A stretch of 39,857 nt of DNA from Candidatus Gottesmanbacteria bacterium RIFCSPLOWO2_01_FULL_39_12b (GCA_001780955.1 MFJR01000007.1:212307-252163), one strand, 5' to 3'. Counted from the first letter of the stretch, positions 6,322 through 34,100 are shown. A program made the numbers and translations. Notes: generated by a model not told the origin, from the letters alone.

Positions 6322-7772
6322 TAGAAGCGAATAATTTTGAAGTAATTATAGGACTTGAAATCCATGTAGAGTTAAAGACCAAGTCCAAGATGTTTTGTGG
6401 TTGCGATGCTAATTGGTTCGGTAAAGAGCCGAACACTCTTTGTTGCCCCGTTTGTCTGGGACTTCCGGGAGCTTTGCCGGTTCCAAATAAAAAAGCGGTT
6501 GAGTGGTGTGTCATGCTGGGATTGGCATTAGACTGTGTGATACCCGAGTTTAGTAAGTTTGACAGGAAGAATTATTTTTATCCCGATCTGCCGAAGGGAT
6601 ACCAGATAAGCCAGTATGATAAACCGTTTGCGATTAATGGTCACCTTGTCATTCCGAGTGAACGAAGTGAATCGAGGAATCTAGCGACCAAAGGGAGCGC
6701 TTCGCTAGATTTCTCCCGACGATTAGATCGGGGTCGAAATGACAACCTGAGGAAAATATGTATAAGGAGAGTGCATATGGAAGAAGATACAGGAAAATTA
6801 ATTCATGCAATTGTTAATGGAGAGAAATGCACTCTTATTGATTTCAATAGAAGCGGGGTGCCACTTGTAGAGATCGTGACGGAACCGGATATCAGAAGCA
6901 GTGAGGAAGCTAGAAGTTTTTTGAAGAAACTGCATCAGATTGTCCGATATTTGGGCATTTCGGACGCGGATATGGAAAAAGGGAGCATGAGGTTGGAACC
7001 GAATATCTCCGTTCGAAAACTGCAAAGCGGCAAAGACACACCCTTGGAATTACCTTCTTACAAAGTGGAAGTGAAGAATATTAATTCCTTCTCTTTTGCC
7101 AAAAAAGCGATTGATTACGAGATAGAGAGACATATTAATTTGTTAACAAAAGGAGAAATTCCTAAACAGGAAACGAGAGGTTGGGACGAGAAAAAAGGAA
7201 TTACTTATTCCCAGAGGAGTAAGGAAGAAGCCCATGACTATCGCTATTTTCCCGAGCCGGATATCCCGCCCATAAGATGGGCGACAAATTTCATCCGCCA
7301 GCTGGCGGATCAAATACCGGAATTACCGGATAAAAAATTAGAAAGATTTATGAAAGAGTTCGGGTTGAGTGAGTATGACGTGACGATATTGACGGATGAT
7401 AAAGATATAGCTGATTATTACGAAAGAGCAGTTTCGGTATCAAGAGGGGTCAGACCTTCAAGTAATTCAAGGTCTGACCCCAATGCAAAGGTTATTGCGA
7501 ACTGGATAATTAATAAAAAAGCAGATATAAATAAGACATCACCAGAAGAGTTGGTAAAGTTGATAACACAACAGAATCAGAAAGTGAATATTACTGAAGA
7601 GGAATTAGTGAAAGTAATAAAAAAGATAATTGAAGCAAATCCAAAGGCTGTGGCCGATTATAAATCAGGCAAGGAACAAGCTCTAATGTTTTTAGTGGGA
7701 CAGGTGATGAGGGAAACAAAAGGGAAGGTAGGAGCTGAGTTTGTCAAAAAAGTTATATTAAAACTATTGTAA
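6318..7772 (+). CDS. gatB: Asp/Glu-tRNA amidotransferase subunit B, carrying three palindromic elements
   Basis: IGLEIHVEL, FDRKNYFYPDLPKGYQISQ, HMEEDTGK, EVKNINSF, DYRYFPEPD, C-terminal YqeY-like domain. GTG start overlaps the asnS stop (GTGA). Confidence 0.96.
   Translation: MIEANNFEVIIGLEIHVELKTKSKMFCGCDANWFGKEPNTLCCPVCLGLPGALPVPNKKAVEWCVMLGLALDCVIPEFSKFDRKNYFYPDLPKGYQISQYDKPFAINGHLVIPSERSESRNLATKGSASLDFSRRLDRGRNDNLRKICIRRVHMEEDTGKLIHAIVNGEKCTLIDFNRSGVPLVEIVTEPDIRSSEEARSFLKKLHQIVRYLGISDADMEKGSMRLEPNISVRKLQSGKDTPLELPSYKVEVKNINSFSFAKKAIDYEIERHINLLTKGEIPKQETRGWDEKKGITYSQRSKEEAHDYRYFPEPDIPPIRWATNFIRQLADQIPELPDKKLERFMKEFGLSEYDVTILTDDKDIADYYERAVSVSRGVRPSSNSRSDPNAKVIANWIINKKADINKTSPEELVKLITQQNQKVNITEEELVKVIKKIIEANPKAVADYKSGKEQALMFLVGQVMRETKGKVGAEFVKKVILKLL
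6646..6745. repeat. ~100-bp nested palindromic (MITE/RPE-like) element in frame within gatB
   Basis: Outer IR TTGTCATTCCGA/TCGAAATGACAA (11/12). Inner IR GAGGAATCTAGCGA (6674-6687)/TCGCTAGATTTCTC (6702-6715) (13/14). Side hairpin CCCGA..TCGGG. Confidence 0.88.
7293..7310. repeat. Perfect 18-bp palindrome ATCCGCCAGCTGGCGGAT in gatB
   Basis: Self-reverse-complementary; encodes IRQLAD; same TCCGCC-N-GGCGGA pattern as the purL element. Confidence 0.8.
7446..7481. repeat. 36-bp REP-like hairpin, copy 1 (in gatB)
   Basis: GGGGTCAGACCTT-N10-AAGGTCTGACCCC, 13-bp perfect stem; 33/36 identical to 19669-19704. Confidence 0.92.
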
Positions 7773-7802
7773 ATCCAGAGCGTTAGAATAATCCCTAATT
7801 TC

Positions 7803-9269
7803 CTACGGGTTGTTAGAAGGGCTTTCTGACGCAATACATACTTGATTTCTCCCATCTTTTTTTGCCTTGTATAGTGCATCGTCAGCTTTTATTAATAAAA
7901 CCTGTTCAGATTCAACTCTCACGGTAGGAAAACTAGCTATACCTATACTTAAGGTACTACCGGGATTATCGTCGGTGTCATTATTTTTAGGGAGGCGTTC
8001 TCTCATAGCTTGAAGAATTTTTTGTGCCAGAGTCGTTGCACCAGCTGTATCAGTATCAGGAAGAATAATGGCAAACTCTTCTCCTCCATAACGGGCTACA
8101 AGATCAGTTTGTCTTACATTGTCACATAATATCCTTGCAACTTGTTCTAATCTTTCATCTCCTGCCGGATGTCCAAAGGTGTCATTGAATCTTTTAAAAA
8201 AGTCCAAATCCGCCATTATTAATGAAATAGGACGATTAGATCTTCTTGCTTGATTAAATTGATCAGCAAGTCTTTCGAAAAATACTCTTCTATTAAACAA
8301 CCCAGTTAGATGATCTGTTGTAGCCAGGCGGTTAAGATCGTTAATAAGGGCAGACATATTGATTGCCTGGCTCAGTTGCTCGCCAAACGCAAAGACATTT
8401 TCACCATCTCCCTCGTTGAAAAAACCTTCATGTGAGCTGTTTGCGCTTAAGATACCAATGGTTTTTCCTTTTACAATGATTGGAATGCCTACGTATGATT
8501 TAATTGGTAGTTCCCCGTCTCTGGTTGTATCTTTCCACCCTTTGTGTTGTGAAGTGTCGGGGATGACTAACATTTTACCTGTTTTTGCAATTTGATTAAG
8601 AGGTTCAGCATCCTCGATTTTTTCTATTGATGGTTCACGTTCAATTACTTGACCATTCCCATCGTATCCCCAACTCATATTAAATATCCGATTCTTGTCT
8701 ATAAACATTATATTGGCTGTTTCAACGTCAATAATATTCGGTAACAATCGTTTCGTTTGATCAAGAATTATATCCAGTGAATGATCTCTAGTTAGAATTT
8801 CTGAAGTTTTCCGAAGTGCTTCGTCTCGTTTTTCTTTGGTGACATCTTGAATACCCAATTCAACGACAGTGGGTTTTCCTCGCTTTATAATAAGATGGGG
8901 AAATAATCTGACTGTTTTTTTCCTACCTGATTTGGTTATTATTTTTACTTCTGGAGGATTAACTACAGATAAGGGTTTATGATGAGAGAAAGCCCGTGCG
9001 GCAGAAATTGTGGTTTCAAATATTTTGTGAAGATATCCTTTTCTGTCTTTAATCGTTCTATCATTGAGTATTTCGTCTACATCTCTACCTACAAGGGTTT
9101 CGTTTCCAGTTAAACCATATTCAACTAAAGCAGCAGGATTAGCTCTTGTAATCTTACGATCTCTTGGATTTACCATTATATGCGGTATAGGATCTCTTAC
9201 TCTATAACGATTTTCTGCAAATTTTACTGGTGGTTCAGAAGTTAAAGAAGGAACTGTTTCACTCATCAT
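7803..9269 (-). CDS. PAS-GAF-GGDEF diguanylate cyclase
   Basis: PAS-like ANPAA..YG; GAF (KSYVGIPI..IGIL); TDHLTGLFNRR, DLDFFKRFNDTFGHPAGD, RQTD I-site, RYGGEEF. Start ATG 9269 or 9266 (ORF track uses TTG 9278). Confidence 0.9.
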   Translation of the reverse strand: MMSETVPSLTSEPPVKFAENRYRVRDPIPHIMVNPRDRKITRANPAALVEYGLTGNETLVGRDVDEILNDRTIKDRKGYLHKIFETTISAARAFSHHKPLSVVNPPEVKIITKSGRKKTVRLFPHLIIKRGKPTVVELGIQDVTKEKRDEALRKTSEILTRDHSLDIILDQTKRLLPNIIDVETANIMFIDKNRIFNMSWGYDGNGQVIEREPSIEKIEDAEPLNQIAKTGKMLVIPDTSQHKGWKDTTRDGELPIKSYVGIPIIVKGKTIGILSANSSHEGFFNEGDGENVFAFGEQLSQAINMSALINDLNRLATTDHLTGLFNRRVFFERLADQFNQARRSNRPISLIMADLDFFKRFNDTFGHPAGDERLEQVARILCDNVRQTDLVARYGGEEFAIILPDTDTAGATTLAQKILQAMRERLPKNNDTDDNPGSTLSIGIASFPTVRVESEQVLLIKADDALYKAKKDGRNQVCIASESPSNNP

Positions 9270-9321
9270 AAGTTTCAAAAGTAACAGGATTATTATATAC
9301 TAAATCAACTGAAAGTTTGAT

Positions 9322-12300
9322 ATGTCCGATTTTGTACACCTTCACTGTCACACTGAGTATTCTCTTCTGGATGGCTTGGCCAAGATTCCGGACTTGCTGC
9401 AAAGAGCCAGAGATCTGGGAATGGATTCCTTGGCCATTACCGATCACGGGGCGATGCACGGGGCGATAAAGTTTTTCCTCAAGGCCCGGGAGGCAGGCAT
9501 AAAGCCAATAATAGGAGTAGAAGCTTATCAGGCGGGAAGAAGCCGGTTTGATAAACAGCAGGGGATAGATCGCGACCAGTTTCATCTGGTGTTATTGGCG
9601 GAAAATAATACCGGTTACCAGAATTTGATGAAGCTTGTTACCCATGCCAATCTGGAAGGATACTACTATAAACCAAGAATCGATCTTCAGGTTCTTCGGG
9701 ATCACAGTGAGGGATTGATCTGTTTATCCGGCTGTTTGAATGGTGAGGTTCCGCACCTACTGATTACTGATCAGGAGGCACAAGCTGAGCGAAAGACCCG
9801 CGAATTTATGGAAATTTTTGGCGAAAACCGTTTTTACCTTGAGATCCAGCAGCACTCAAAAATTATCCAGCAAGTTCAGGCTAATGAGAAAATAATCGCT
9901 TTATCGCGTAAATTAGGTTTGCCGCTTGTAGCAACTAACGATATTCATTATGTGGATAAAGATGATGCTGAAGCGCAAGAGATTCTACTCTGCGTACAAA
10001 CTCAGCGGACGATTCTTGAATCCGGAAGGCCTCTCTCCATGATTGATTCACCGGATTTTTATATGAGAAGTCAGGAAGAAATGAAAGGCTTGTTTATCCA
10101 GTATCCGGAAGCAATTGAGAATACGGTAAAGATAGCAAATCGATGTAATGTTGAGATAGAGCTGGGAAAATGGATTCTTCCCCATTTTGAGGTTCCGCAG
10201 GGAGATACAGCCAATTCTTATCTTAAAAAACTGGCTCATGAGAGACTAAAAAATAGATTTTCTCAGGTCACCCCGAATTTAGGAAACCGTCTCAACTACG
10301 AGCTGGAAATAATTTCGCAAAAAGGTTATTCGACCTATTTTCTGATCGTTTCAGATTTTGTCAATTGGGCAAAAGAAAAGGGAATTGCTGTTGGTCCCGG
10401 TCGTGGATCAGCCGCTGGCAGTCTGGTTGCGTACTCTTTGGGTATCACAGATCTTGATCCGATAAAACATCTTCTTCCTTTTGAAAGATTTTTAAATCCG
10501 GATAGACCTTCACCACCGGATATTGATCTGGATTTTGCCGACGACCGGAGAGATGAGGTAATTGCTTACGTGACCGAAAAATACGGTAACGATAAGGTGG
10601 CTCAAATAATTACTTTTGGGACTATGGAAGCCAGGCAAGCCATTCGGGATGTAGGACGTGCTTTGGGAATGCCTTATGCCCAGCCTGACCGGATTGCCAA
10701 GCTTATTCCAGCTGGAGCACAAGGTTTTCCTATGTCAATTGATAAAGCAATACAGATCACTCCAGAGTTAACTTATGCCTATCAGAATGAACCCGAAACA
10801 AAAAGATTGCTGGATTTAGCCCGTAAACTGGAAGGAGTTGCCCGTCACGCTTCCGTACACGCTGCAGGAATTGTCATCTCAGATAAACCATTAACCGCTT
10901 ATACTCCATTACAAAAAGAAACCAAAGGCCAAAGAATAATTACCCAATATGATATGTATTGCTTGGATCTTAATGCCGCTGACGGTAAAGCGGTAGGACT
11001 TTTGAAGATGGATTTATTAGGACTTCGTAATCTAACAATACTTGAAAATTGCATGAAGTTTGTGCAGCAAAATCGTGATATAAAAATTGATTTACTATCA
11101 CTTTCTCTGGAAGACCACGATGTTTACAATCTTATTTCTTCGGGTGAGACGACGGGAATATTTCAGATGGAATCAGCCGGTATGAGAAGACTCGCCCGGG
11201 ATCTCAAACCATCAAAGTTTACTGATATCTCAGCCATGGTAGCTCTATTTAGACCTGGACCGATGGATTGGATACCTTCTTTTATCGAAGCTAAAGCCAA
11301 TCCGAAAAAAATTAAATACCCGCATCCGGATCTTAAACAAATCTTATCAGAAACTTACGGGATAGCCGTTTATCAGGAGCAATGTATGCAGATTGCGAAC
11401 CAAATGGCAGGTTATTCTATGGTAGAAGCCGATAAACTGAGGATGGCAATCGGTAAGAAAAAACCGGAATACATGAAGAAAGAAAAAGCCAAATTTATAA
11501 GCGGATGTGTGAAAAAAGGATACACAAAAACGGTAGCCGAAAATATTTTTTCCCTGATAGAGAAATTCGTCGGTTACGGTTTTAATAAAGCCCATTCTGC
11601 TTCCTATGCCATGATTGCTTATCAAACGGCTTTCATGAAGGTAAAGTATCCTGTAGAGTTTATGACCGCAGTCTTTATAGCAGAAAGTAGAGGAGTCTCT
11701 GGCCCGGCCAGAGACGACAAGATTTCTCAAGCTATTTTAGAATGCCGAAGGATGGATATATACCTACTTCCGCCTGACATCAATACGTCTGAAATCGAGT
11801 TTACTATCGAGCAGGATAAAACAAGTAAGTGGGGGGGGAAAATTAGATTCGGATTATCGGCCATAAAAAATGTAGGTTCTGCCGCCATCAATGTCTTGCT
11901 TGACGCGAGACTTAAGGAAGGTCCTTTCAAATCATTTACTGACTTTATAAATAGAGTGGACCTGTCAAAAGTTACCCGGAAAACACTTGAGAGTTTAATT
12001 AAAGCAGGCGCTATGGACCGGTTTGGTAAACGAGCGGCTTTGCTTGCTTGTTATTCTCAGATAGTAGAAAAAATTCATAAAGCAAAAGCTAAAAAAAATG
12101 AGGATCAGGTCAGTTTATTTGCTGAGGATGAAGAGATTAACCTAACAGATAATCTTCCTGAAATTGAAGAGTTGTCAAAAGAAGAATTGTTACTCTTCGA
12201 AAAAGAATTATTAGGTTTTTATCTTACCGAACACCCGTTGACTCCTTTACTCCCAACACTTGAAAAAAAGGTAACCCATAGAATTAATACCCTTTCTGAA

Positions 12301-12564
12301 GCGAAATCAACTGTGATTATAGGCGGATTAATTTCCTCGGTAAAAAAAATCTTTACCAAAAACGGAAACAATGAAATGGCCTTTGTCAAATTAGATGATT
12401 TCACAGGGGCGATTGAACTCGTGATATTTCCTTCAGTATTTGAAAGAACGAGATATTTATGGAGGCAAGATGCGGTAATTTTGGTAAAGGGTAATATTAA
12501 TGAGAGAGAAGACAGATTAACGGTCATAGTTGATGACGCCAAAAATTTAATTTCGGACTCTTGA
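9322..12564 (+). CDS. dnaE: DNA polymerase III alpha subunit
   Basis: PHP HLHCHTEYSLLDG, GPGRGSAAGS, PPDIDLDF, KMDLLGL, YGFNKAHS, C-terminal OB-fold; no intein evident. Confidence 0.98.
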   Translation: MSDFVHLHCHTEYSLLDGLAKIPDLLQRARDLGMDSLAITDHGAMHGAIKFFLKAREAGIKPIIGVEAYQAGRSRFDKQQGIDRDQFHLVLLAENNTGYQNLMKLVTHANLEGYYYKPRIDLQVLRDHSEGLICLSGCLNGEVPHLLITDQEAQAERKTREFMEIFGENRFYLEIQQHSKIIQQVQANEKIIALSRKLGLPLVATNDIHYVDKDDAEAQEILLCVQTQRTILESGRPLSMIDSPDFYMRSQEEMKGLFIQYPEAIENTVKIANRCNVEIELGKWILPHFEVPQGDTANSYLKKLAHERLKNRFSQVTPNLGNRLNYELEIISQKGYSTYFLIVSDFVNWAKEKGIAVGPGRGSAAGSLVAYSLGITDLDPIKHLLPFERFLNPDRPSPPDIDLDFADDRRDEVIAYVTEKYGNDKVAQIITFGTMEARQAIRDVGRALGMPYAQPDRIAKLIPAGAQGFPMSIDKAIQITPELTYAYQNEPETKRLLDLARKLEGVARHASVHAAGIVISDKPLTAYTPLQKETKGQRIITQYDMYCLDLNAADGKAVGLLKMDLLGLRNLTILENCMKFVQQNRDIKIDLLSLSLEDHDVYNLISSGETTGIFQMESAGMRRLARDLKPSKFTDISAMVALFRPGPMDWIPSFIEAKANPKKIKYPHPDLKQILSETYGIAVYQEQCMQIANQMAGYSMVEADKLRMAIGKKKPEYMKKEKAKFISGCVKKGYTKTVAENIFSLIEKFVGYGFNKAHSASYAMIAYQTAFMKVKYPVEFMTAVFIAESRGVSGPARDDKISQAILECRRMDIYLLPPDINTSEIEFTIEQDKTSKWGGKIRFGLSAIKNVGSAAINVLLDARLKEGPFKSFTDFINRVDLSKVTRKTLESLIKAGAMDRFGKRAALLACYSQIVEKIHKAKAKKNEDQVSLFAEDEEINLTDNLPEIEELSKEELLLFEKELLGFYLTEHPLTPLLPTLEKKVTHRINTLSEAKSTVIIGGLISSVKKIFTKNGNNEMAFVKLDDFTGAIELVIFPSVFERTRYLWRQDAVILVKGNINEREDRLTVIVDDAKNLISDS

Positions 12565-12589
12565 CTTAATTTAAAGGCTAATTTACAAT
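12561..12589 (+). promoter_or_regulatory. Putative sigma70 promoter of atp operon
   Basis: TTGACT (12561-12566), 17 bp spacer, TACAAT (12584-12589). Confidence 0.7.
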
Positions 12590-12616
12590 GGAAAACAGTT
12601 TTATAATAATTGATAA

Positions 12617-12925
12617 ATGCCGATTAGGAAGCGAATTGCCTTAAGTTTCAAAGAGGGAAGATTAGTTTCAAAAGAGATAAATAAGAATAGCCCTAATGAT
12701 AAGGATAATAGTCGAGAGAAACTAATTAGAGGTGTCGGTTTGGTCAGTGAGTTGGGATTTGTAATCTCTTTTCCTCTAGTTGGAGGGGTTTTTTTAGGGA
12801 TATGGCTGGATAAAAGATTTTCGTCTTCACCTAAAATGACCCTTTCTTTTCTTTTTTTAGGGCTGGTAATCGCTTTCTCTAATTTGTTTTTAATAATAAG
12901 CGAATTTTCTAAAAAAAAGAAGTAA
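12617..12925 (+). CDS. AtpZ/AtpI-family ATP synthase accessory membrane protein
   Basis: Two hydrophobic helices, GGVFLGIWLDKRF motif; first gene of the atp operon. Confidence 0.8.
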   Translation: MPIRKRIALSFKEGRLVSKEINKNSPNDKDNSREKLIRGVGLVSELGFVISFPLVGGVFLGIWLDKRFSSSPKMTLSFLFLGLVIAFSNLFLIISEFSKKKK

Positions 12926-12930
12926 ACAAC

Positions 12931-13692
12931 ATGCCTCAACCACACATCTCTCTTTCTGCTGAAAAAATAGGGTCATTATTTGGAATTCCTATCACAAATT
13001 CAATATTAATGACCTGGATGACAATGTTATTTCTGACAGTTTTTTCTCTAATGGCAGTTGCCAAGATATCTTTGGTTCCTTCCAATATTCAATCAATGGC
13101 TGAGGTTATAATTGATGGATTGTATAATATTTTTAAGAGCGTTGTCGGTGAACATTATATTAAATCTTTTTTTCCTCTTCTGGCAACTATATTTCTTTTT
13201 ATAGCGGTTGCAAATTGGGGAGGGTTGCTTCCCGGGGTTGGTACGATTGGTTTTCATAGGGAGGTAATCACCGAGGTCGTGGAGGCGAAATCAGAATTTA
13301 TACCACTTTTTCGAGGTGCCACAGCGGATCTTAACACCACATTAGCGCTTGCTATTATCGCTGTCTTATCTATTCAGTATTTTGGCGTACGTTCTTTGGG
13401 AGGCGGGTACTTTAAGAAATTTTTTAATTTCTCAGATCCGATCATGTTTGGAGTAGGTCTTCTGGAAATAGTGTCCGAGATATCCAGAGTTATTTCATTT
13501 GCATTTCGTCTTTTTGGTAACATTTTTGCCGGTGAGGTATTGTTAACAGTCATTGCATTTTTGATGCCCCTCATCGCCCCCTTACCATTTTTGGGTCTGG
13601 AACTGTTTGTGGGTTTTATTCAAGCGCTGGTTTTTTCCATGCTAACCGCCGTATTTTTGAATATGGCTACTGTTTCACATGACAGTCACTAA
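12931..13692 (+). CDS. atpB: ATP synthase Fo subunit a
   Basis: TADLNTTLALA, SFAFRLFGNIFAGE, FIQALVF. Confidence 0.97.
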   Translation: MPQPHISLSAEKIGSLFGIPITNSILMTWMTMLFLTVFSLMAVAKISLVPSNIQSMAEVIIDGLYNIFKSVVGEHYIKSFFPLLATIFLFIAVANWGGLLPGVGTIGFHREVITEVVEAKSEFIPLFRGATADLNTTLALAIIAVLSIQYFGVRSLGGGYFKKFFNFSDPIMFGVGLLEIVSEISRVISFAFRLFGNIFAGEVLLTVIAFLMPLIAPLPFLGLELFVGFIQALVFSMLTAVFLNMATVSHDSH

Positions 13693-13709
13693 TTTTTAAA
13701 TTCGATTTC

Positions 13710-13960
<251 letters not shown>

Positions 13961-13963
<3 letters not shown>

Positions 13964-13999
13964 GTAACTTAAGTGCCTTAGGTGACCTAAGTGACATAG
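13961..13999 (+). repeat. Degenerate 9-bp tandem repeat between atpE and atpF
   Basis: TAAGTAACT TAAGTGCCT TAGGTGACC TAAGTGACA TAG. Confidence 0.75.
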
Positions 14000-14009
14000 A
14001 AATTTATAC

Positions 14010-14841: not shown

Positions 14842-14844
14842 TTT

Positions 14845-19051: not shown

Positions 19052-20161
19052 ATGAATAAAAAAGGTTATTTGATTTTAGAAAATGGCCAAATTTTTGAGG
19101 GAATATCTGTGGGCGCCGAAAAACAAGTTACCGGCGAAGTAGTTTTTAATACCGGTATGGTTGGTTATCCGGAAGGCTTTACCGATCCCTCTTACTTCGG
19201 ACAGATCCTCACGATGACTTACCCTCTTATAGGTAATTACGGTGTAACAGATAAAAAAACCTGGGAATCGGATAGGCTTCAAATAAGGGGACTAATTGTA
19301 TCATCATATATCGATAATAAATCACACTATACGGCATCTCAGACTCTAAGTGACTGGTTAAAAAAAGAAGGGATTCCTGCTTTGGCCAATATCGATACCC
19401 GAACTCTGACTAAAATTATTCGTGAATTTGGCGTTATGAAAGGCCAAATTACTTTTTCACCCCCGATTAAATCGGGGTTATTTTTTGATGACATTAAAGA
19501 CGATAATTTATTACCCTACGTGTCCTGCAAAAAACCCTCAGTTTATAAAGGTGGAGACTTTCGCATTCTGACTCTAGATTGCGGATTGAAAGAAAACCAA
19601 ATCAGAATTTGGCAAAAATTAAAAGTAACGGTAATCCGAGTTCCTTGGGACTATGACCCATTCAAAAAGGGGTCAGACCTCAAAGTAAATCAAGGTCTGA
19701 CCCCAGTAAAATTTGACGCTGTTTTTATCAGTAACGGACCGGGAGATCCGAAACAAGCCGTGAGAACCATAGAAATTGTCAGAGAGGCGATTAAACGAGA
19801 GTTTCCTTTACTTGGAATATGTTTGGGGAATCAGATTCTGGCTCTTGCGGCTAAAGCAGATACCTTCAAATTGAAATACGGACACCGCGGACAGAATCAA
19901 CCGGTTAAAGATGAAATCAGTGGCCGCTGTTATATTACGACTCAAAACCACGGATTCGCGGTTGATATAAAAACTTTGCCCGAGGGATGGATACCCTGGT
20001 TTACTAATCTTAATGACGATACTAACGAAGGTATAAGGCATAAAAAATTACCGTTTCTTAGCTGTCAGTTTCATCCAGAAGCAACACCTGGGCCGACTGA
20101 TACCGAGTGGATTTTTGAATACTTCCTGACGGAGGCAAAAAAATGGCTAAAAAAACCTTAA
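19052..20161 (+). CDS. carA: Carbamoyl-phosphate synthase small subunit
   Basis: GEVVFNTGMVGYPE, SNGPGDP, GICLGNQ, TTQNHGF, QFHPEATPGP. Confidence 0.97.
   Translation: MNKKGYLILENGQIFEGISVGAEKQVTGEVVFNTGMVGYPEGFTDPSYFGQILTMTYPLIGNYGVTDKKTWESDRLQIRGLIVSSYIDNKSHYTASQTLSDWLKKEGIPALANIDTRTLTKIIREFGVMKGQITFSPPIKSGLFFDDIKDDNLLPYVSCKKPSVYKGGDFRILTLDCGLKENQIRIWQKLKVTVIRVPWDYDPFKKGSDLKVNQGLTPVKFDAVFISNGPGDPKQAVRTIEIVREAIKREFPLLGICLGNQILALAAKADTFKLKYGHRGQNQPVKDEISGRCYITTQNHGFAVDIKTLPEGWIPWFTNLNDDTNEGIRHKKLPFLSCQFHPEATPGPTDTEWIFEYFLTEAKKWLKKP
19669..19704. repeat. 36-bp REP-like hairpin, copy 2 (in carA)
   Basis: GGGGTCAGACCT-N12-AGGTCTGACCCC; 33/36 identical to 7446-7481. Confidence 0.92.
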
Positions 20162-24323: not shown

Positions 24324-24365
24324 TATATATTATTTTTTCGCGGCCGCTAACTAATTAATATATTT
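24324..24365. repeat. Intergenic quasi-palindrome with GCGGCCGC core, copy 1
   Basis: TATATATTA-TTTT-TTCGCGGCCGCTAAC-TAAT-TAATATAT; core 24337-24351 is the exact reverse complement of 26807-26821. Confidence 0.85.
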
Positions 24366-24370
24366 TAGAA

Positions 24371-25441
24371 ATGGGAAAGCTGCTTAGACTTCCAGGTCTT
24401 ATAGATATCCACGTTCATCTTCGTGATCCGGGACAAACCCATAAAGAAGATTTTTTAACCGGCACGTCTGCTGCATTGGCCGGTGGAGTGACAACTGTTT
24501 TTGACATGCCTAATAATAAAGAACCTATTTTCAGCTATGGGAGATTAAAAGAAAAGATAGAAATAGCAAAAAGGAAAGCTGTGTGTGATTGGGGGCTTTA
24601 TTTTGGGACGGATGGGCAAAATATCAAAGAATTCGAAAAAGTGGTAGATAAAGTAGTCGGTCTTAAAGTTTATTTAAATTTAACAACGGGAAAAATTTTA
24701 ATAGAAAATGAAAAATTAGTTGAGAAAGTCTTTAAATATTGGCCGAAAAATAAAATAATCGTTGTCCATGCAGAAGGAGAAAAGATTGATTTGGCAATAG
24801 GATTATGTAAAAAATATAATAACAAAATACATATAACTCATATTAGTAACAGACAAGATCTCGATAAAATACTCGAGGCAAAATTAAAAAAAATACCTGT
24901 AACTTGCGACGTAACGATTAACCATTTATTTTTAGATAAGCATGACGCTGATTTTTATAAAGACCTTCTTGTTATGAAACCATCTTTGCAAAATGAGGAC
25001 GAGGTAGATTATCTCTGGGAAAATTTACCAAGGATTGATTGTATTGCAACAGACCATGCACCTCATTTAGCTTCTGAGAAGAGATCGTTTGATCCACCTA
25101 CTGGTGTAACAGGAGTCGAAACAATGTTACCCCTCCTTTTGACAGCTGTAAAACAAAAGAGATTGACTATTAAAGAGATAGTGAGACTTACTAATACCGA
25201 CCCCCAAATAATATTTGGATACAAACAGGATAAAAATACTTATGTAGAGTTAGATCCTGAAGAAGAGTATAAGATAGACAACAAAAGACTCTTCACCAAA
25301 TGCGGCTGGAGTCCTTATCATGGATGGAAAGTATATGGAAAGGTAAAAAAAGTAATTCTTCGCGGAGAAAAAGTTTTTGAAGAAGGAAAAGTATTGATTA
25401 AACCTGGTTTCGGGCTAAACATTTGTTATAATAAAGTTTAA
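24371..25441 (+). CDS. pyrC: Dihydroorotase (CAD-like)
   Basis: LPGLIDIHVHLRDPG.THKED, AALAGG..DMPN, GLKVYLN, VHAE, HITHIS, IATDHAPH. Confidence 0.95.
   Translation: MGKLLRLPGLIDIHVHLRDPGQTHKEDFLTGTSAALAGGVTTVFDMPNNKEPIFSYGRLKEKIEIAKRKAVCDWGLYFGTDGQNIKEFEKVVDKVVGLKVYLNLTTGKILIENEKLVEKVFKYWPKNKIIVVHAEGEKIDLAIGLCKKYNNKIHITHISNRQDLDKILEAKLKKIPVTCDVTINHLFLDKHDADFYKDLLVMKPSLQNEDEVDYLWENLPRIDCIATDHAPHLASEKRSFDPPTGVTGVETMLPLLLTAVKQKRLTIKEIVRLTNTDPQIIFGYKQDKNTYVELDPEEEYKIDNKRLFTKCGWSPYHGWKVYGKVKKVILRGEKVFEEGKVLIKPGFGLNICYNKV
25424..25432 (+). promoter_or_regulatory. Putative extended -10 promoter of pyrD within the pyrC 3' end
   Basis: TGtTATAAT ending 10 nt before ATG 25443; no SD. Confidence 0.55.
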
Positions 25442-25442
25442 T

Positions 25443-26366: not shown

Positions 26367-26373
26367 TTTTGCT

Positions 26374-26793: not shown

Positions 26794-26836
26794 ATATATA
26801 TTATTTGTTAGCGGCCGCGAATGAATTAATATATAT
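26794..26836. repeat. Intergenic quasi-palindrome with GCGGCCGC core, copy 2 (inverted)
   Basis: ATATATATTATTT-GTTAGCGGCCGCGAA-TGAATTAATATATAT. Confidence 0.85.
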
Positions 26837-26851
26837 TCATAAAAGAATAAG

Positions 26852-27718
26852 ATGTATTTTAGATCTAAACTAGACAATATAGTAAAAAAGAATAACAGCC
26901 TCCTTTGCGTAGGACTGGATAGTGATATCGATAAACTTCCAATATCTATCCGTAATGGTGAGCACCCCCAGTCAACTTTCAACAGAGCGATTATCGAAGC
27001 GACACACGATCTGGTATGTGCCTTTAAACCTAATACGGCCTTTTACGAATCAAGAGGAAAAGCAGGTATAGAAGCGCTAAAAACGACCTGCGATTTTTTA
27101 AAAGAAACCTACCCGGATATTATAATTATTCTTGATGCTAAACGGGCAGATATTGGGAATACCAACGAAGGATATGTGCAGTTTGCCTTTGACTATTTAG
27201 GAGCAGATGCCATAACACTTCATCCATATTTGGGAAAAGAAGCATTAAAACCATTTTTGGATAGGAAAGATAAAGGATTTTTCATTCTTTGCCGAACGTC
27301 TAATCCGGGAGCAGGGGAGTTTCAAGACTTGCTGCTAAGCAAGTCGCAGCCCTCCGACTCGGCCTTCGCAGCCGCTTCGGCGAAGGAGGGCACACCACTC
27401 TACCAAATAGTAGCAGAACACGTAGTTCAAGACTGGAATTACAACGGAAACTGCGGATTGGTTGTGGGAGCTACCTACCCTAACGAACTAGAGATTGTGC
27501 GACGTATTGCAAAAGATCTACCGCTATTGATTCCAGGAATTGGCGCTCAAGGCGGAGACACGGAAAAAACCGTAAAAGCCGGAGTTGACAATGATGGTCA
27601 AAATACCATCATAAATTCTTCCCGCGGCATAATTTTCGCTTCAGAAGGTGAAAATTTTGCAGAAAAATCAAGAGTTGAAGCGGAAAAATTAAGAGACGAT
27701 ATAAATAAATTCAGATAG
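26852..27718 (+). CDS. pyrF: Orotidine-5'-phosphate decarboxylase (subfamily 2)
   Basis: LCVGLD, FKPNTAFYE, DAKRADIGNT, RTSNP, VVGAT, PGIGAQGG, NSSR. Confidence 0.96.
   Translation: MYFRSKLDNIVKKNNSLLCVGLDSDIDKLPISIRNGEHPQSTFNRAIIEATHDLVCAFKPNTAFYESRGKAGIEALKTTCDFLKETYPDIIIILDAKRADIGNTNEGYVQFAFDYLGADAITLHPYLGKEALKPFLDRKDKGFFILCRTSNPGAGEFQDLLLSKSQPSDSAFAAASAKEGTPLYQIVAEHVVQDWNYNGNCGLVVGATYPNELEIVRRIAKDLPLLIPGIGAQGGDTEKTVKAGVDNDGQNTIINSSRGIIFASEGENFAEKSRVEAEKLRDDINKFR
27349..27391. repeat. GC-rich degenerate palindromic element in frame within pyrF
   Basis: Arms GCCCTCC/GGAGGGC and CCTTCGC/GCGAAGG; encodes PSDSAFAAASAKEG. Confidence 0.8.
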
Positions 27719-28733
27719 AGCATTTAATCAGAATTTTTCCGAAGGCTTTCTGTTGATCGAATTTATATAATGCTTCCTTTGTCTTCTCTAGAGGATATAT
27801 AGAATCAATAACCGGTTTAATGGTATCTTTCTGCAACAGTTTTATAACTTCTCTCAGATCATTAACTGTTCCTCCATATGACCCAAGAATGTTGGTTTGC
27901 CTGGAAAAAGCGCTTGCCAAATTTACCGATCCCGGATCGTCAAGGGTAGTTGAACAGAAAACCATCGTCCCGTTTTTAGCAAGCAACTCAATACCTTTTG
28001 ACCAGACGTTTCCGCCCATGATGTCTATGACATAATCAACTCCGTTGGATGAAATATTTTTTACCTCGTTTATTAAATTATTGGTTTTTACCACTTCATC
28101 GGTCCCTAATTCTTTTAATTTTTTGACTTTTGAGTTATGGTTTGTGGCACAAATAACTTTACATTTTCGCTCTTTCAAAAGTTGTGCCGCAGATGTTCCG
28201 ACTCCTCCTGTTGCGCCCGTAACTAAGACAGTCGCGTGATTTTTTATATTGGCGCGTTTAATCATGTGATAGGCGGTTATTGTAGATAAAACGGATGCAG
28301 AAACTAATTTGGAAGATAAATAGGAGGGTATTTTTACGAGATTTTTGACCGGTACGGAAACAAATTCTGCAAACCCTCCCCATCTTGTCCGTCCGAAGGT
28401 GCCTCCGTTATCACAGATATTTTCGTTTCCCCTCCTACACTGCTCACATTTTCCGCAGAAAGTCCAAGGATAAACCGCTACCCGATCGCCAATTTTAAAG
28501 TTTCGATCTTTTGAATTTATTTTAACAATTATTCCTATAAATTCAGACCCAAGAATATGGGGAAAAGTTTTCGGTCCCAGACGTTTGCCTTCGATTATCA
28601 GGAGGTCAAGATGATTGAGGCCGCAATACTCAACTTTTATCAACATCTCATTATTGTCTGGCTCGGGAATTGGAATATCCGTATAACGTAAATTGTTTAG
28701 ACTTCCTATTTTGTCCAAAACTACTGCTTTCAT
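27711..28733 (-). CDS. MDR-family (zinc-ADH-like) NAD(P)-dependent oxidoreductase
   Basis: GLNHLD, ILGSE, structural-Zn C-x2-C-x2-C-x7-C, VTGATGGVG, GKILI. Confidence 0.9.
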   Translation of the reverse strand: MKAVVLDKIGSLNNLRYTDIPIPEPDNNEMLIKVEYCGLNHLDLLIIEGKRLGPKTFPHILGSEFIGIIVKINSKDRNFKIGDRVAVYPWTFCGKCEQCRRGNENICDNGGTFGRTRWGGFAEFVSVPVKNLVKIPSYLSSKLVSASVLSTITAYHMIKRANIKNHATVLVTGATGGVGTSAAQLLKERKCKVICATNHNSKVKKLKELGTDEVVKTNNLINEVKNISSNGVDYVIDIMGGNVWSKGIELLAKNGTMVFCSTTLDDPGSVNLASAFSRQTNILGSYGGTVNDLREVIKLLQKDTIKPVIDSIYPLEKTKEALYKFDQQKAFGKILIKCSI

Positions 28734-28757
28734 AATTGAATTTATCTATTAGTTGTA

Positions 28758-28763
28758 TATAAT
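28758..28763 (+). promoter_or_regulatory. Putative -10 of leaderless pyrE transcript
   Basis: TATAAT 7 nt before ATG 28771; TTGAAT at 28736-28741; no SD. Confidence 0.55.
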
Positions 28764-28770
28764 ATCATAT

Positions 28771-29403
28771 ATGACAAGTGATGATGTTTTGGCAATATTT
28801 AAAAAAACCGGCGGCTATATTACCGGTAGTCACATCGTTTATACTTCCGGGAAACACGGCGAGGCATATCTGAATAAAGATGCCATTTACCCGCACGTAG
28901 CGGAAATTTCGGCAATCTGTGAAGAAATAGCCAAACGATTTCAGGATAAAAATATTGATGTGGTGGCAGCTCCGGCTTTGGGAGGAATTATTTTGTCCCA
29001 ATGGACGGCTTACCACCTGTCAAATATTACTAAAAGGGAAATCCTGGGAGTTTATACCGAGAAAACTCCTGACAAGAATCAAATATTTACCCGCGGATAT
29101 GATGCTTTGGTGAAGGGTAAGAGAGTTTTGATAGTTGAGGATATTACAACAACCGGCGGATCGGTAATCAAAGTAATAAATAGCGTTAAAAATGCCGGTG
29201 GTGAAATTATAGCCGTGTGCGTTTTGGTAAATCGCGACCCGGTAAATATTAATTCTCAATCAATCGGAGCCCCATTTTATCCTCTGGCAGAGGTAAAAAT
29301 GCAAGCTTGGATCGAGTCGGATTGTCCGTTATGTCAAAAAGGAGTACCAATAAATACCACAGTGGGTAAGGGAAGAGAATATTTTAAAAAAACTGCCTCT
29401 TGA
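28771..29403 (+). CDS. pyrE: Orotate phosphoribosyltransferase
   Basis: HIVYTSGKH, PALGG, PRPP motif VLIVEDITTTGGS, C-terminal CPLC; pyr context. Confidence 0.92.
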   Translation: MTSDDVLAIFKKTGGYITGSHIVYTSGKHGEAYLNKDAIYPHVAEISAICEEIAKRFQDKNIDVVAAPALGGIILSQWTAYHLSNITKREILGVYTEKTPDKNQIFTRGYDALVKGKRVLIVEDITTTGGSVIKVINSVKNAGGEIIAVCVLVNRDPVNINSQSIGAPFYPLAEVKMQAWIESDCPLCQKGVPINTTVGKGREYFKKTAS

Positions 29404-29429
29404 AAATATAGGGTACAATTTGTTATCCT
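29400..29429 (+). promoter_or_regulatory. Putative promoter of leaderless pyrG transcript
   Basis: TTGAAA, 18 bp spacer, TGtTATCCT ending 5 nt before ATG 29435. Confidence 0.5.
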
Positions 29430-29434
29430 AAAAC

Positions 29435-31096
29435 ATGCCACTCAAATATATATTCGTTTCAGGCGGGGTAATTTCAGGCCTTGGAAAGGGCATTTCTTCG
29501 GGTTCAATTGCATTTCTCCTTCAGTCAGCCGGATTTCGAGTAACTCTGGTAAAATGTGAAAATTATCTCAATATTGATGCCGGTACAATTAATCCCATAG
29601 AGCACGGAGATCCTTTCCTGTGTGAAGACGGAACAGAAGCTGATATGGATATCGGCACCTACGAAAAGTTTTTGGACAAGAATATGCACAGGCATAATTT
29701 TGTGACCATGGGTCAGGTTTATAAGACCGTAATAGACCGAGAGAGAAGGTTTGAGTACAACGGAGAAGATGTTGAAGCCATTCCTCATATAACCAATGAA
29801 ATTACCGACAGGATTAACAAGGCGGCAGAAACAGATCGCGCTCAGATTGTGATTGTTGAGTTGGGTGGAACGGTAGGAGAATATCAAAATCTTTTCTATT
29901 ATGAAGCGGCAAGAATTTTAACTTTAAAACGCCCCAAAGATGTTATCCATGTACACGTCAGTTATTTGCCTACTCCTTCACACTTAGGTGAACCTAAAAC
30001 TAAACCTACACAGCAGTCTGTAAGAGCCTTGAATTCGGCAGGTATTCAGCCTGATTTTATTGTAGCAAGAAGCGAAAAGCCTCTGGACAAAAGGCGGCGC
30101 GACCGTTTTTCTCTTTTCTGCAATATGCGGCCGGAGGATATTATCTCAAGTCCTGACGCCGAGACAGTTTATGAAGTACCGTTACAGTTTCATGCGCAGG
30201 GATTGTTGCAGAAAATCTGCCAGAAACTTTCCCTAAGTTATAAAGATCCTGATCTTGGGAAATGGGAACTACTTATCGGAAAAATAAAAGCCAAAAAGGA
30301 CAGGAAGATTACTATCGCAATAGTAGGTAAGTATTTTGCCACCGGCGAATATCAGCTCCGCGATTCTTATGCGGCTTTGATGGATGCAATCGACCACGCC
30401 TCGTGGGCGTTAGGTGTGAAAGTAAATACTAACTGGATTGATGCTGAGAAAGTAGAAAAAGAGGGAATTGAAAAATATGTGGATCAAAATATAAACGGAC
30501 TTATTGTTCCAATTGGTTGGGGAGAAAGAGGTGCTGAAGGAATGATTAAGGCTGCCGGTTGGGCCCGTAACAATAAAGTACCATACTTAGGGCTTTGCTA
30601 TGGAATGCAGCTTGCCGTGATTTCTTTTGCGCGAGATATTTTAGGCTGGCGCGATGCAAATACTACTGAGAATGATAAAAAGACTACTCATCCGGTGATT
30701 CATCTGATGCCGGCGCAAAAACAGTTTATGGAGAGGCGATCTTACGGCGGAACGATGCGTCTGGGGGCTTGGAAGGCAATTGTAAAAAAAGATACGATTG
30801 CCTGGGGATCTTATGAAAAATACAATCAATTTATCGATAAATCAAAAGGGCTAACTTCCGAACGTCACCGACACAGGTACGAATTCAATGATGCCTATGC
30901 TAAAAATTTTGATAATAAAGGCCTTATTATTGCAGCGCGTAGCGTAGTTGAAAACCTGGTTGAAATAGTAGAACTGCCTAAATCAGTCCATCCGTTTTAT
31001 TTAGGAACCCAGGGTCATCCCGAATATAAGAGCCGTCCGCTATCCCCGCATCCCATTTTTCTGGAGTTTCTTGAAGCTTGTATTAATAAGAAATAA
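29435..31096 (+). CDS. pyrG: CTP synthase
   Basis: GGVISGLGKG, ELGGTVG, KTKPTQQS, GLCYGMQ, GGTMRLG, ERHRHRYE, QGHPE. Confidence 0.98.
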   Translation: MPLKYIFVSGGVISGLGKGISSGSIAFLLQSAGFRVTLVKCENYLNIDAGTINPIEHGDPFLCEDGTEADMDIGTYEKFLDKNMHRHNFVTMGQVYKTVIDRERRFEYNGEDVEAIPHITNEITDRINKAAETDRAQIVIVELGGTVGEYQNLFYYEAARILTLKRPKDVIHVHVSYLPTPSHLGEPKTKPTQQSVRALNSAGIQPDFIVARSEKPLDKRRRDRFSLFCNMRPEDIISSPDAETVYEVPLQFHAQGLLQKICQKLSLSYKDPDLGKWELLIGKIKAKKDRKITIAIVGKYFATGEYQLRDSYAALMDAIDHASWALGVKVNTNWIDAEKVEKEGIEKYVDQNINGLIVPIGWGERGAEGMIKAAGWARNNKVPYLGLCYGMQLAVISFARDILGWRDANTTENDKKTTHPVIHLMPAQKQFMERRSYGGTMRLGAWKAIVKKDTIAWGSYEKYNQFIDKSKGLTSERHRHRYEFNDAYAKNFDNKGLIIAARSVVENLVEIVELPKSVHPFYLGTQGHPEYKSRPLSPHPIFLEFLEACINKK

Positions 31097-31106
31097 CAAA
31101 TAGTTA

Positions 31107-34100
31107 ATGATTAGCAGAATCGAAATAAGAAGTAGAGTATTTGATGCCAGGGCAGAGGTAAGGAAAAGAAAATTTCTGGATTCGGGATTTGCTGGGAAAT
31201 TAAAAGATATTTATATTGTTGACGTTTATACTCTTGAGAAAAAATTATCTCCAATTCAATTAAATAAAATTGCCTCAATGTTTTGTAATCCTGTTACGCA
31301 GGAAGTTTCTATCTTAGATCCTAAGTCCAAACGCAAATCCAAGGATAATAAATTCTCTTGGGCGATTGAAATCGGATATCTTCCTGGTGTGACGGATAAT
31401 ATTGCCGCAACAGCAAAAGAAAGCATAGTAGATTTGTTGAAAGTGAAATTTTTACCTAAAGAAGGTGTTTATACCTCCCAGATTACCTTTATAGACGGCG
31501 ATCTAATAAGTAGTGATGCCGAGCAAATTGCCGAAAGCCTGTATAACCCGATAATCCAACGCTGCCATATTAAAAATTACCAGGAATATATTAGAGGCAA
31601 CGGTATGGATTTTGTGGTACCCAAGGTCAAATTAAGCCAAATACCGGAAATTGTGAAGGTAAATCTTGATGTTTCCGACGGGGAATTAATTAAGATTGGC
31701 AAAGAAGGGATAGCTAATAATGATGGTACAAGACGCGGACCATTGGCGTTAAGTCTGTCGTTTATGAAGGCGATCCAAACGCATTTTAAAAAACTGGGGC
31801 GGAAACCGACTGACATTGAACTGGAGTCAATTGCCCAAACCTGGTCTGAACACTGCAAACATACCATTTTTGCCGATCCGATTGATGAAATCAGGCAGGG
31901 TTTGTTTAAGAAATATATTAAAGGCGCCACAGATGAAATAAGGAAAAAAAAGTCGGCCAAAGGCCGATCCGCCTCGGGTGGAGATTTTTGCGTTTCGGTT
32001 TTTAAAGACAATTCAGGCGCAATTGAATTTGATGATGATTATCTTATCACCCATAAAGTCGAGACACACAACAGTCCCTCGGCGCTGGATCCATTCGGAG
32101 GCTCAATTACGGGAATAGTCGGGGTTAACCGCGATACGATCGGTTTTGGCCTGGGAGCAAAACCAGTTGCCAATTTTTATGGATTTTGTTTTGCCGATCA
32201 CAGAGTAGATATGCCTCTTTATAAAGGAGCCAATTATACCCAAAAAATGCTATCCAGTAGGCGGATTATGGATGGTGTTATAGAAGGCGTTAACGCCGGT
32301 GGTAACCAATCGGGCATTCCTACCCCTTCTGGATTTGTCTATTTTGACGAAAGGTATCGGGGAAAACCATTGGTATTTGTAGGGACGGTAGGTCTAATCC
32401 CTAAAAAAATTAAAGGTAAGTCTTCATATACAAAAAAAGCTAGAAACAGAGATTATATAGTTATGATCGGAGGGAGAGTCGGAAAGGACGGTATTCATGG
32501 TGCTACTTTTTCGTCAGAAGCAATGGATAGCGGAAGTCCATCTACCGCAGTCCAAATAGGAGACCCGATTACCCAAAAAAAATTATCAGACGCCATCGTA
32601 AAAGAAGCAAGGGAGATGGATTTATACCACAGTATTACCGATAACGGCGCCGGAGGACTTTCCTGTTCTGTTGCCGAAATGGCCAAGGAGTCAGGCGGTT
32701 GTATTGTTGATTTAGACAAAGTTCCTTTAAAGTATCCGGGGCTTGAACCCTGGGAAATTTGGGTGTCTGAATCCCAAGAACGGATGACTTTGGCAATACC
32801 AAAGAAAAATTGGAAGAAATTCGAAGATCTTATGAAACGCCGGGGCGTAGAAGCTAATGTAATTGGTAAGTTTACCGATTCTAAAAAGTGTCAGATTTAC
32901 TTTCGAGGACAGAAGATAATGGATTTAGGCATGGATTTCCTCCATTACGGTTTACCGCAAAGAAATCTTACATCTTCATATACAAAAGCTATAAATGACG
33001 AGCCAGGATTTACCGAAGAAAAAAATCTTAACCGACAATTTACAGAAATGCTTTCAAGATTGAATTTAGGAAGTTTTGCCTTCATTTCCCAGCAATATGA
33101 TCACATGGTGCAATCTAGCCTTATACTAGGCCCATTACAGGGAAGGGGCAGAGTTAATGCGGAAGTGACAGTCTTAAAGCCGGTATTAAATTCCAACCGT
33201 GGAATTGTTATGTCTTACGGCTTATATCCTTCCTATAGCGATATTAATACTTATCACATGGCTGCTTCATCCATTGATACCGCCATAAGAAATGCCGTAA
33301 GCGTGGGGGTTGATCCAAACGCAATTGCACTTTTGGACAACTTCTGCTGGTGCAGTTCTGATGATCCCGAAAGACTTGGTCAGTTAAAGCGTGCCGCTAA
33401 GGCCTGTTATGATCTCTCTACCGTTTTTGAAACACCTTTTATTTCCGGGAAAGACAGCATGTTCAATGATTTTAAGGGATACGATCGTAGTGGAAAATCC
33501 ATAAAAATTTCCATACCCCCTACCCTTCTTATTTCTTCACTCGGTGTAGTTGACGATATCACAAAGGTGGTTTCCCTGGACGTCAAATTCCCGGGCGATT
33601 TAGTATACATATTGGGCGATACTTACATGGAGCTGGGAGGAAGCGAATATTTCTCCTTAATTTCTGAAAAACAAAGGAATAATTCTATCGGAAATAATGT
33701 TCCAAAAGTAAACCCCAGGAAAAACAAAAAACTTTACACTGATTTTTATAAGAGTATAAAAAAACAATTAATCTCATCAAGTATAAGTATTAATCGGGGA
33801 GGTTTAGGAATTGCTTTAGCAAAAATGGCAATTGGCGGAGAATTAGGACTCGATATAAGGTTAAATAATTTGCCGGGTTTGGTAAGACGGAATGATTTTG
33901 CTCTGTTTTCAGAAAGTCAGGGAAGAATAGTCGTAACCGTACTTCCTAAAAATAAAAATATTTTTGAAAAGTTGATGCGCGGAAACAGTTTTGCCTTGAT
34001 TGGAAAAGTAATTAAAGAGCCAAAAATGATTATCCGGGGATTAAAAGGTGGCGAAATTATTAATACCGGTCTTAAAAAAATTCAAGATGCCTATACTTCA

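Follow-up and report, generated by a model that had tools for sequence, protein, structure and literature searches.

Six GC-rich hairpins lie inside four core genes, gatB (three hairpins), carA, pyrF and purL, in a stretch of 39,857 nt (G000:C7:212307-252163, referred to as the window) from Candidatus Gottesmanbacteria bacterium RIFCSPLOWO2_01_FULL_39_12b (genome code G000), and were followed up in the whole genome and its relatives. With a probability of about 0.7, they belong to an unusually intragenic repeat system resembling both the repetitive extragenic palindromes (REPs) with their REP-associated tyrosine transposases (RAYTs) and the Rickettsia palindromic elements (RPEs), in which a RAYT is the likely spreader of one family, called R1. 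The hairpins would be copies of short GC-rich self-complementary repeats that have spread in G000 and patchily in its relatives; as about nine tenths of the genome is coding, most new copies would land in genes, and the surviving ones would be those that kept the frame open in tolerant places (disordered surface loops, interdomain linkers), where they are presumably translated, as 4-33 extra residues. R1 would be spread by the RAYT encoded at G000:C7:547583-548230, a single-strand HUH/Y1 transposase which, by analogy with the binding, cutting and rejoining of folded hairpins by IS200/IS605 enzymes and the E. coli RAYT, would bind the folded hairpin on single-stranded DNA and then cut and rejoin. 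Co-occurrence of gene and repeat points to this role, and the other families may have spread similarly through some enzyme, possibly one that was lost or escaped assembly.

The G000 assembly (1.27 Mb in 15 contigs, 36-41% GC per contig, 38% GC overall) is rated 84% complete, and comparisons between genomes covered 41 genomes of one class (0.7-1.8 Mb), designated by codes of the same type. Open reading frames (ORFs) were taken from our own greedy call (1253 crude ORFs covering 93% of G000), which probably overstates the coding fraction, so that the shares of copies given below as inside ORFs are approximate; the Pfam domains found in the hosts indicate that most repeat hosts are real genes. The organism is probably a member of the Candidate Phyla Radiation (CPR)/Patescibacteria, in line with its earlier placement: ribosomal protein L30 (PF00327), which CPR bacteria are not known to encode, was matched in none of the 41 class genomes against 13 of 14 control genomes, host DNA was detected in groundwater and soil metagenome runs, and genome sizes in the class are small.

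Six hairpins in four core genes

Each hairpin was folded as single-stranded DNA and compared with 200 dinucleotide shuffles, with results given below beside the genes and elements concerned (window coordinates).

6318..7772, + strand: gatB (NCBIfam NF004012, 546.6 bits against a cut-off of 338), host of three elements
6648..6743: family A element in gatB, 96 nt (32 codons), with ends GTCATTCCGAG ... TCGAAATGAC and internal stem-loops; fold of 6640-6751, z -3.06, 0 shuffles as good
7288..7315: core palindrome in gatB, 28 nt, near-perfect, with the 14-mer CCGCCAGCTGGCGG at 7295-7308, encoding IRQLAD in a predicted helix; fold of 7286-7317, z -4.69, 1 shuffle as good
7446..7481: R1 hairpin in gatB, 36 nt, 13-bp stem, 10-nt loop, encoding GVRPSSNSRSDP, read GVRP...RSDP; fold of 7443-7484, z -6.66, 0 shuffles as good
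19052..20161, + strand: carA (TIGR01368, 420.4 bits)
19669..19704: R1 hairpin in carA, 36 nt, encoding GSDLKVNQGLTP, read GSDL...GLTP, the other open frame; fold of 19666-19707, z -7.18, 0 shuffles as good
26852..27718, + strand: pyrF (TIGR02127, 250.6 bits)
27349..27391: pyrF hairpin, imperfect, GC-rich, within an insert of ~17 residues (SQPSDSAFAAASAKEG); fold of 27340-27400, weak, z -2.00, 8 shuffles as good
31107..34118, + strand: purL (TIGR01736 over residues 220-1001, 508.3 bits, below the cut-off of 525.75)
31953..31982: double mini-hairpin in purL, 30 nt, TCGGCC-AAA-GGCCGA then TCCGCC-TCG-GGTGGA, net +7 residues (SAKGRSA); fold of 31945-31990, z -2.74, 2 shuffles as good

All six hairpins reported by the first-pass annotation (a reading of the window sequence made before this analysis) were present and folded better than the shuffles, that of pyrF weakly so. 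None broke a reading frame, every element in the window lying inside an open frame of gatB, carA, pyrF or purL.

Genome-wide, 32 GC-rich perfect hairpins (stem of at least 9, loop of at most 10) were counted, against 1 in a block shuffle. When synonymous codons were permuted within each of 1212 ORFs (10 replicates), a check proposed at the outset, the CCGCC-containing 14-mer CCGCCAGCTGGCGG fell from 31 observed copies in ORFs to 0-1, GGTCWGACC arms from 39 to 4-8 and GC-rich hairpins from 23 to 0-4, and reversed-pattern controls gave 0 matches in all 41 genomes. Since synonymous-codon shuffles abolish the motifs, the palindromes must be ascribed to the DNA itself rather than to the peptides that it encodes. 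It is exceedingly unlikely that the hairpins arose from chance, low-complexity sequence, mis-assembly or selection on the encoded peptides: besides the shuffles and reversed controls, the frame in which one and the same DNA element is read varies from protein to protein, and contigs from two other sequencing runs (covering 6607-7315, X2, and 6569-7194, X5) had 0 differences from the window, which argues that the gatB elements are not an assembly artefact. Such origins would fit the pyrF hairpin alone, with its weak fold and single copy, and are contradicted for five of the six elements.

Several families of palindromes were represented, as had been claimed, but five groups were counted instead of about four, and not all are unrelated: the CCGCC core was often nested in elements with inverted ends (family A), and its stem TCCGCC/GGCGGA recurred in some of the mini-hairpins. 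At least one copy of R1, the core or a mini-hairpin was hosted by 51 of the 1253 ORFs, and among the repeat hosts are gatB, five genes for tRNA synthetases, and genes that serve the synthesis of purines, pyrimidines and NAD.

The view that the hairpins encode extra peptides held for five of the six, for which alignment of GatB, CarA, PyrF and PurL orthologs revealed shorter, empty sites; the hairpin at 7293-7310, by contrast, replaces sequence at the same length as in the orthologs. The gatB family A copy encodes residues ~111-142 of GatB (VIPSERSESRNL...RGRNDN), a loop with no counterpart in 11 of 26 orthologs (others having different repeat-like peptides), and residues 116-140 also had no counterpart in Thermotoga maritima GatB (chain 3al0_B). 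The R1 peptide of GatB was found in none of the 26 orthologs, the shortest of which are ~13 residues shorter at this point, and the 12-residue R1 insert of CarA in none of 23 aligned orthologs. At the PyrF site, 17 of 25 other aligned sequences had the short form, two had ~4 extra residues and six had other long inserts; no second copy of the pyrF element was found in G000 by searches allowing 1-2 mismatches, and its likeness to the right half of family A elements is no more than an impression. In G013, pyrF was found on two contigs (G013:C183, locus L088, and G013:C115, locus L075), each with a different palindromic insert at the same hot spot, a CCGCC-core element on one and a RAYT-type CACCTGGAAGG...CCTTCCAGGTG hairpin on the other; the two versions may come from two strains, G013 being rated 3% contaminated.

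Mapping on a predicted structure placed the family A and R1 peptides of GatB in low-confidence loops (AlphaFold2 model, 26-row alignment, mean pLDDT, the predicted local distance difference test score, 80.9). Two segments scored below 50: residues 117-141, which lie between two strands and inside the family A peptide, and residues 379-384, which lie between two helices and inside the R1 peptide. IRQLAD was placed in helix 323-332, where blocks have pLDDT 93-95.

R1 repeats and their candidate transposase

The R1 consensus is (G/A)GGGTCAGACCTT-N10-AAGGTCTGACCC(C/T). G000 contains 21 copies (33-36 nt, mostly single), 17 of which lie inside ORFs, and all that their flanks have in common is that a purine precedes the palindrome and a pyrimidine follows it. 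Two frames of the 36-nt form are open, read GSDL..GLTP or RVRPL..RSDP, while the third frame, which has a TGA in the right arm, was not seen; the sole 33-nt copy enters in the third frame and exits as RSDP. Among further R1 hosts, 10 of 13 had Pfam domains (PurD, PheT, a class II tRNA synthetase, an RsmI-like methylase, NUDIX, glycosyltransferases and others), and the domain spans of R1 hosts exceeded the profile length by 9-13 residues where the hairpin sits. A pattern count across the 41 genomes recovered the R1 hairpin in four, with 16 copies in G000, 9 in G007, 9 in G013 and 19 in G034.

Six Y1_Tnp matches over the cut-off were found in G000, all of them outside C7:212307-252163, consistent with the earlier statement that the window holds no mobilising enzyme. 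The best NCBIfam model for all six was the REP-associated tyrosine transposase, NF047646, for which the gene at C7:547583-548230 scored 83.7 bits (cut-off 80) and the other five fell below the cut-off; the same gene scored 52.1 bits against Pfam Y1_Tnp (cut-off 23), and its nearest Atlas clusters are Y1_Tnp / RayT. An R1 half-site, GGGGTCAGACC, is located 49 nt upstream of this RAYT gene, and a full R1 hairpin lies at its 3' end, where the left arm encodes the last residues and the loop holds the stop codon. A sequence comparison of the RAYT with solved structures gave 0 matches at E <= 0.001, and a wider contig search for relatives gave one distant match (35% identical), in a gammaproteobacterial metagenome-assembled genome. 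Altogether, five of the six RAYT-like genes have their own palindrome on at least one flank, four others being flanked by small, mostly intergenic families of their own (AAGGTTGGACCTT, CACCTGGGAGGTG, CACCTGGAAGGTG and CCCATGCCGGGCATGGG), and in other relatives, too, the RAYT loci have flanking palindromes of their own.

The pairing of gene and repeat recurred in other genomes. G034 has a full-length RAYT, 64% identical, with the same half-site upstream and the same hairpin at the 3' end, and G013 has a piece of 36 codons, 78% identical, that abuts an R1 hairpin. A close RAYT was thus present in three of the four R1-bearing genomes (G000 itself included, and one of the three being the 36-codon piece) and in none of the 37 others, where the best RAYT match was at most 43% identical. 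The proposed search for an HUH/Y1 gene flanked by the same motif succeeded for R1 only, and for the initial idea of several palindrome families mobilised in trans there is evidence, in the form of co-occurrence, for R1 only (two of the six hairpins).

For the CCGCC core, family A and the mini-hairpins, no mobiliser was found in G000, the assembly of which is only 84% complete and may lack such a gene. Family A ends occurred in 2 of 48 RAYT loci scanned, flanking the ORF on both sides in neither, and a TnpB-type gene (PF07282) gave 0 matches in G000. GIY-YIG genes, which the first-pass annotation had named as candidates, were rejected as mobilisers: of 11 matches, nine were over the cut-off, and the nine inspected adjoin tRNA genes and are not flanked by the motifs (one GIY-YIG upstream region holds a CCGCC-like tract).

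As a separate observation, small GIY-YIG genes (matched frames of ~70-150 codons) stand beside tRNA genes or tRNA-like sequence at C15:69453, C15:8099, C7:267661 and C7:191516, and likewise at C15:30144, C7:333515 and C10:3729, one of the set having internal stops.

CCGCC cores, heptamer arrays, family A and mini-hairpins

The core CCGCCAGCTGGCGG is present in 37 exact copies in G000, or 48 when central variants are included, 40 of these 48 being in ORFs. It is read in all three frames (PPAGG, SASWR or RQLAD) in roughly equal numbers, and an 18-mer holding it is open in all frames on both strands. Pfam domains were found in 17 of 20 core hosts scanned (taken from the ORFs holding the 40 in-ORF copies), and many cores lie between domains, as in GluRS, CysRS, GDH, a Mur ligase, PolX and a UvrD-nuclease; copies were also clustered in ORFs of unknown function.

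The 18-mer at 7293-7310 in gatB is identical at the same codons in G021 and G006, the three carrier genomes being from different genera, and is absent from G017, which belongs to the genus of G006; in most of the remaining orthologs the site is occupied by tandem heptamers. At the gatB site of relatives (loci L003, L006, L011 and L030), different heptamer units make up the same total length. G000 itself contains 23 perfect tandem heptamer arrays (at least 3.8 units), 21 of them in ORFs, matching the trinucleotide arrays (22) in number; the heptamer arrays have ~4.7 units, 33-34 nt being the commonest lengths, and the unit differs between arrays. By a looser test (at least 8 of 11 lag-7 matches), a heptamer flank was detected at 11 of the 37 exact cores, against 1.9% of random places, while only 2 of 37 passed a strict test (12 of 14 lag-7 matches). 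The GDH heptamer array is split by a palindrome in G000 and G001 and unsplit in G008, and CarA of G024 has a 19-residue insert of heptamers plus CCGCC core at a site other than that of R1.

Based on the gatB site, where three genomes have the same 18-mer and other relatives have different perfect heptamer arrays of the same length, one may envisage a process that rewrites coding patches of ~15-35 nt at recurrent soft spots of proteins with heptamers or GC-rich palindromes, sometimes without change of length. The palindromes would then not be classical insertions but products of templated patch replacement or hairpin-directed conversion, possibly run by domesticated RAYT-like enzymes, and would diversify loops of essential CPR proteins. 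We regard this process as unlikely.

The same site bears on whether the core (and perhaps the mini-hairpins) could be a non-mobile binding site of a dimeric chromosomal protein, made and maintained in place by point changes under selection, an explanation that we consider unlikely. The parS, Noc-binding and SlmA-binding palindromes are scattered inside genes in tens of copies, and the core resembles these sites, and cyanobacterial HIP1, in being a short exact palindrome with tens of intragenic copies, sometimes length-neutral. A perfect palindrome of 14-18 bp in 37 exact copies, the lack of length change in gatB and cysRS, the identical 18-mer at the same gatB codons in three genera, and the occurrence of the core without a linked transposase, even in G010, which has no Y1_Tnp match, would all suit a binding site. 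The core differs from such sites in its patchy copy number: the genera of one family have anything from 0 to 56 copies, and G006 has 56 against 19 in its congener G017, the gatB site itself being present in the former and not in the latter. Net insertions moreover accompany the core in GDH, NadA, GluRS and the CarA of G024, and core copies are found nested in family A elements as well as in clusters within ORFs of unknown function.

A short exact motif that is over-represented, tolerated in three frames and common to related genomes could also be a DNA uptake signal, enriched by biased uptake and recombination in a DNA-importing bacterium. This is very unlikely, since the uptake sequences described so far have a density of about one per kb, are not palindromic and accumulate without insertions, whereas the density of the core is low, ~one per 34 kb (37 copies in 1.27 Mb); in addition, the copies are palindromic and often associated with insertions, several unrelated motifs coexist, and one family is tied to a RAYT gene.

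Family A has terminal inverted repeats GTCATTSCGAG / CTCGSRATGAC. A relaxed pattern recovered 11 elements in G000 (39-143 nt), nine of them in ORFs and often with the core just inside the left end, and a strict pattern applied to the 41 genomes showed it to be common in G006 (127 strand hits), G013 (106), G017 (86) and G016 (49). Core and family A are both abundant in G006 and G013; G017, G016 and G000 have high numbers of just one of them, and G008 and G004 have none or almost none of either. The conserved 11-nt inverted ends, the variable, modular interior of ~40-140 nt and the many copies in some genomes are reminiscent of miniature inverted-repeat transposable elements such as Correia and ERIC, from which family A differs in that most G000 copies lie in ORFs; no target-site duplication was evident at the copies inspected, and no parent insertion sequence was recognised in the RAYT loci scanned (the search covering these loci only).

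Seven double mini-hairpins were found in the genome, following the pattern TCNNCC-AAA-GGNNGA then TCNNCC-TCN-GGNNGA, with paired changes in the stems (TCGGCC/GGCCGA, TCAGCC/GGCTGA, TCGTCC/GGACGA). Such pairing is also what would be expected if the hairpins were kept for a role in RNA or translation: stable stem-loops in the mRNA, placed where domains meet, could slow the ribosome or shield the transcript, a selfish origin then being secondary. The G-T pair of the purL copy, which would be G-U in RNA, the combination of invariant R1 stems with variable loops, and the location of many copies between domains or in loops agree with such a role; placement in loops is, however, equally expected where purifying selection has acted on random insertions, intergenic copies of the same families exist, none of the sequencing runs listed for the host was of RNA, and the elements are self-complementary, which makes strand and orientation uninformative. 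Overall, an RNA role as the main cause appears unlikely. The PurL insert was common, among 18 other aligned rows, to G016 only (protein 86% identical) and was missing in G001, the congener of G016.

The purL ORF also has ~220 residues (31107-31760, residues 1-219) ahead of the part matched by the model; this N-terminal part is common to relatives of the same family, while the more distant G007, G034, G026 and G009 match only from residue ~194-213.

Weight of the evidence and relation to known systems

Several observations weigh against a REP/RAYT-like system of intragenic repeats. In G034, only 3 of 18 R1 copies examined were well inside long ORFs; with the copies there mostly outside such ORFs, the intragenic habit of R1 belongs to G000 and not to the whole family. 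The R1 stems are nearly invariant while the 10-nt loops are all different, which simple copying from a master element does not predict, and no GTAG or CGTC tetranucleotide, as found in REPs, was present at the ends of the 21 R1 copies. G007 has nine R1 hairpins and no close RAYT, its best match covering part of the protein at 41% identity, although the genome is rated 98% complete. Of 47 loci scanned, a motif filter recognised a Y1 ORF in 28, none of which contains the CCGCC core, and the count of the core does not track that of Y1_Tnp (15 cores and 0 Y1_Tnp in G010, 0 and 9 in G014, 2 and 13 in G036). Neither does the core behave like a fixed-length insert: gatB and cysRS keep their length, NadA and GluRS are each longer by 4 residues, and GDH by 9. 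Lastly, the population yielded neither a transposition event nor an empty-site allele: in four other runs compared, in which the organism was present at ~4x depth, none of the contigs listed bridged 7446-7481 or 19669-19704, and the contig joints came from short conserved fragments belonging to other organisms (20-38 letters per side, 88% likeness), uninformative on empty sites.

According to PMC3733652, RAYT genes are flanked by REPs, which lie mostly between genes, and intragenic REPs of the GTAG/CGTC type occur in Opitutus terrae and in Rickettsia conorii, RPE-4 and RPE-6 having been identified as such REPs. The G000 repeats resemble this system in being short GC-rich hairpins in tens of copies, in the RAYT-family Y1/HUH gene flanked by its own repeat (R1), in the presence of several RAYT-repeat pairs in one genome and in the co-occurrence of repeat and RAYT across genomes. 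Apart from the missing terminal tetranucleotides, they differ in that 17 of 21 R1 copies in G000 are intragenic (in G034 they are mostly outside long ORFs, closer to the REPs of that source), that R1 copies are mostly single instead of forming inverted doublets, that the host is a probable CPR bacterium, and that no RAYT adjoins the CCGCC core, the family with the highest copy number.

RPEs, as described in PMC10969869 and PMC3733652, are in-frame palindromic inserts of several families in unrelated housekeeping genes, the proteins remaining intact. The elements studied here are likewise in-frame inserts in conserved genes, empty in orthologs and modelled as loops in GatB. RPEs are ~150 bp long in the same sources, whereas the nearest in length here is the gatB family A element (96 nt), the others measuring 14-36 nt; the lineage is another one, a candidate mobilising enzyme exists here for one family, and the likeness considered is one of features. 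The heptamer arrays, for their part, recall the short tandemly repeated repetitive (STRR) sequences of cyanobacteria and the TAACTGA heptamers of Beggiatoaceae (PMC4679880, PMC4692102) in that arrays of 7-nt units are over-represented, but 21 of 23 arrays here lie in ORFs, they are ~33 nt long with a varying unit, and some flank the CCGCC palindrome.

With intragenic REPs and RPEs already described, the novelty lies in variant features and not in the kind of system: the new points are the lineage, the fact that intragenic copies in housekeeping genes predominate, the shortness of the cores, the length-neutral replacements at recurrent sites and the link to heptamer arrays. A literature search for such repeats in CPR/Patescibacteria returned nothing relevant, most subscription journals being outside its reach. 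REPs with their RAYTs are treated as intergenic residents, and Rickettsia has been the main example of intragenic palindromes, for which no enzyme is named in the accessible text of PMC3733652 and PMC10969869. Here both features are combined in one small genome, with one family tied to a specific transposase gene, which makes the entry of repeats into coding DNA, and their retention there, directly testable. CPR proteins are often longer or odder than their families, and some of the excess may be repeat-derived, which would affect annotation, alignment and structure prediction.

Other genes and palindromes were recorded in addition. NCBIfam also identified carB among the window's genes, with asnS upstream. 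The sequence GCGGCCGC occurs at window positions 24332-24355 and 26803-26826 as the centre of an AT-rich palindrome (TATATATTA..ttcGCGGCCGCgaa..TAATATATA), with spacers of 18-34 nt to the genes on either side and just upstream of the gene starts at 24371 and 26852; 20 sites were found in the genome, ~11 of them with the same AT-rich context, and the element has the look of a regulatory module, or of a terminator/promoter, and is not one of the coding palindromes. At window positions 11695-11715 there is a perfect palindrome, GTCTCTGGCCCGGCCAGAGAC, which has a stem of 10 bp and is single-copy in the genome; the 1080-residue ORF around it (9322-12564) reads, by eye, like a DNA polymerase III alpha subunit. 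Palindrome doublets of the form GCAAGGGC(A/T)GCCCTTGC were present in three ORFs (C6:24404-24444, C7:526503-526540 and C8:6278-6315) and constitute a further small family.

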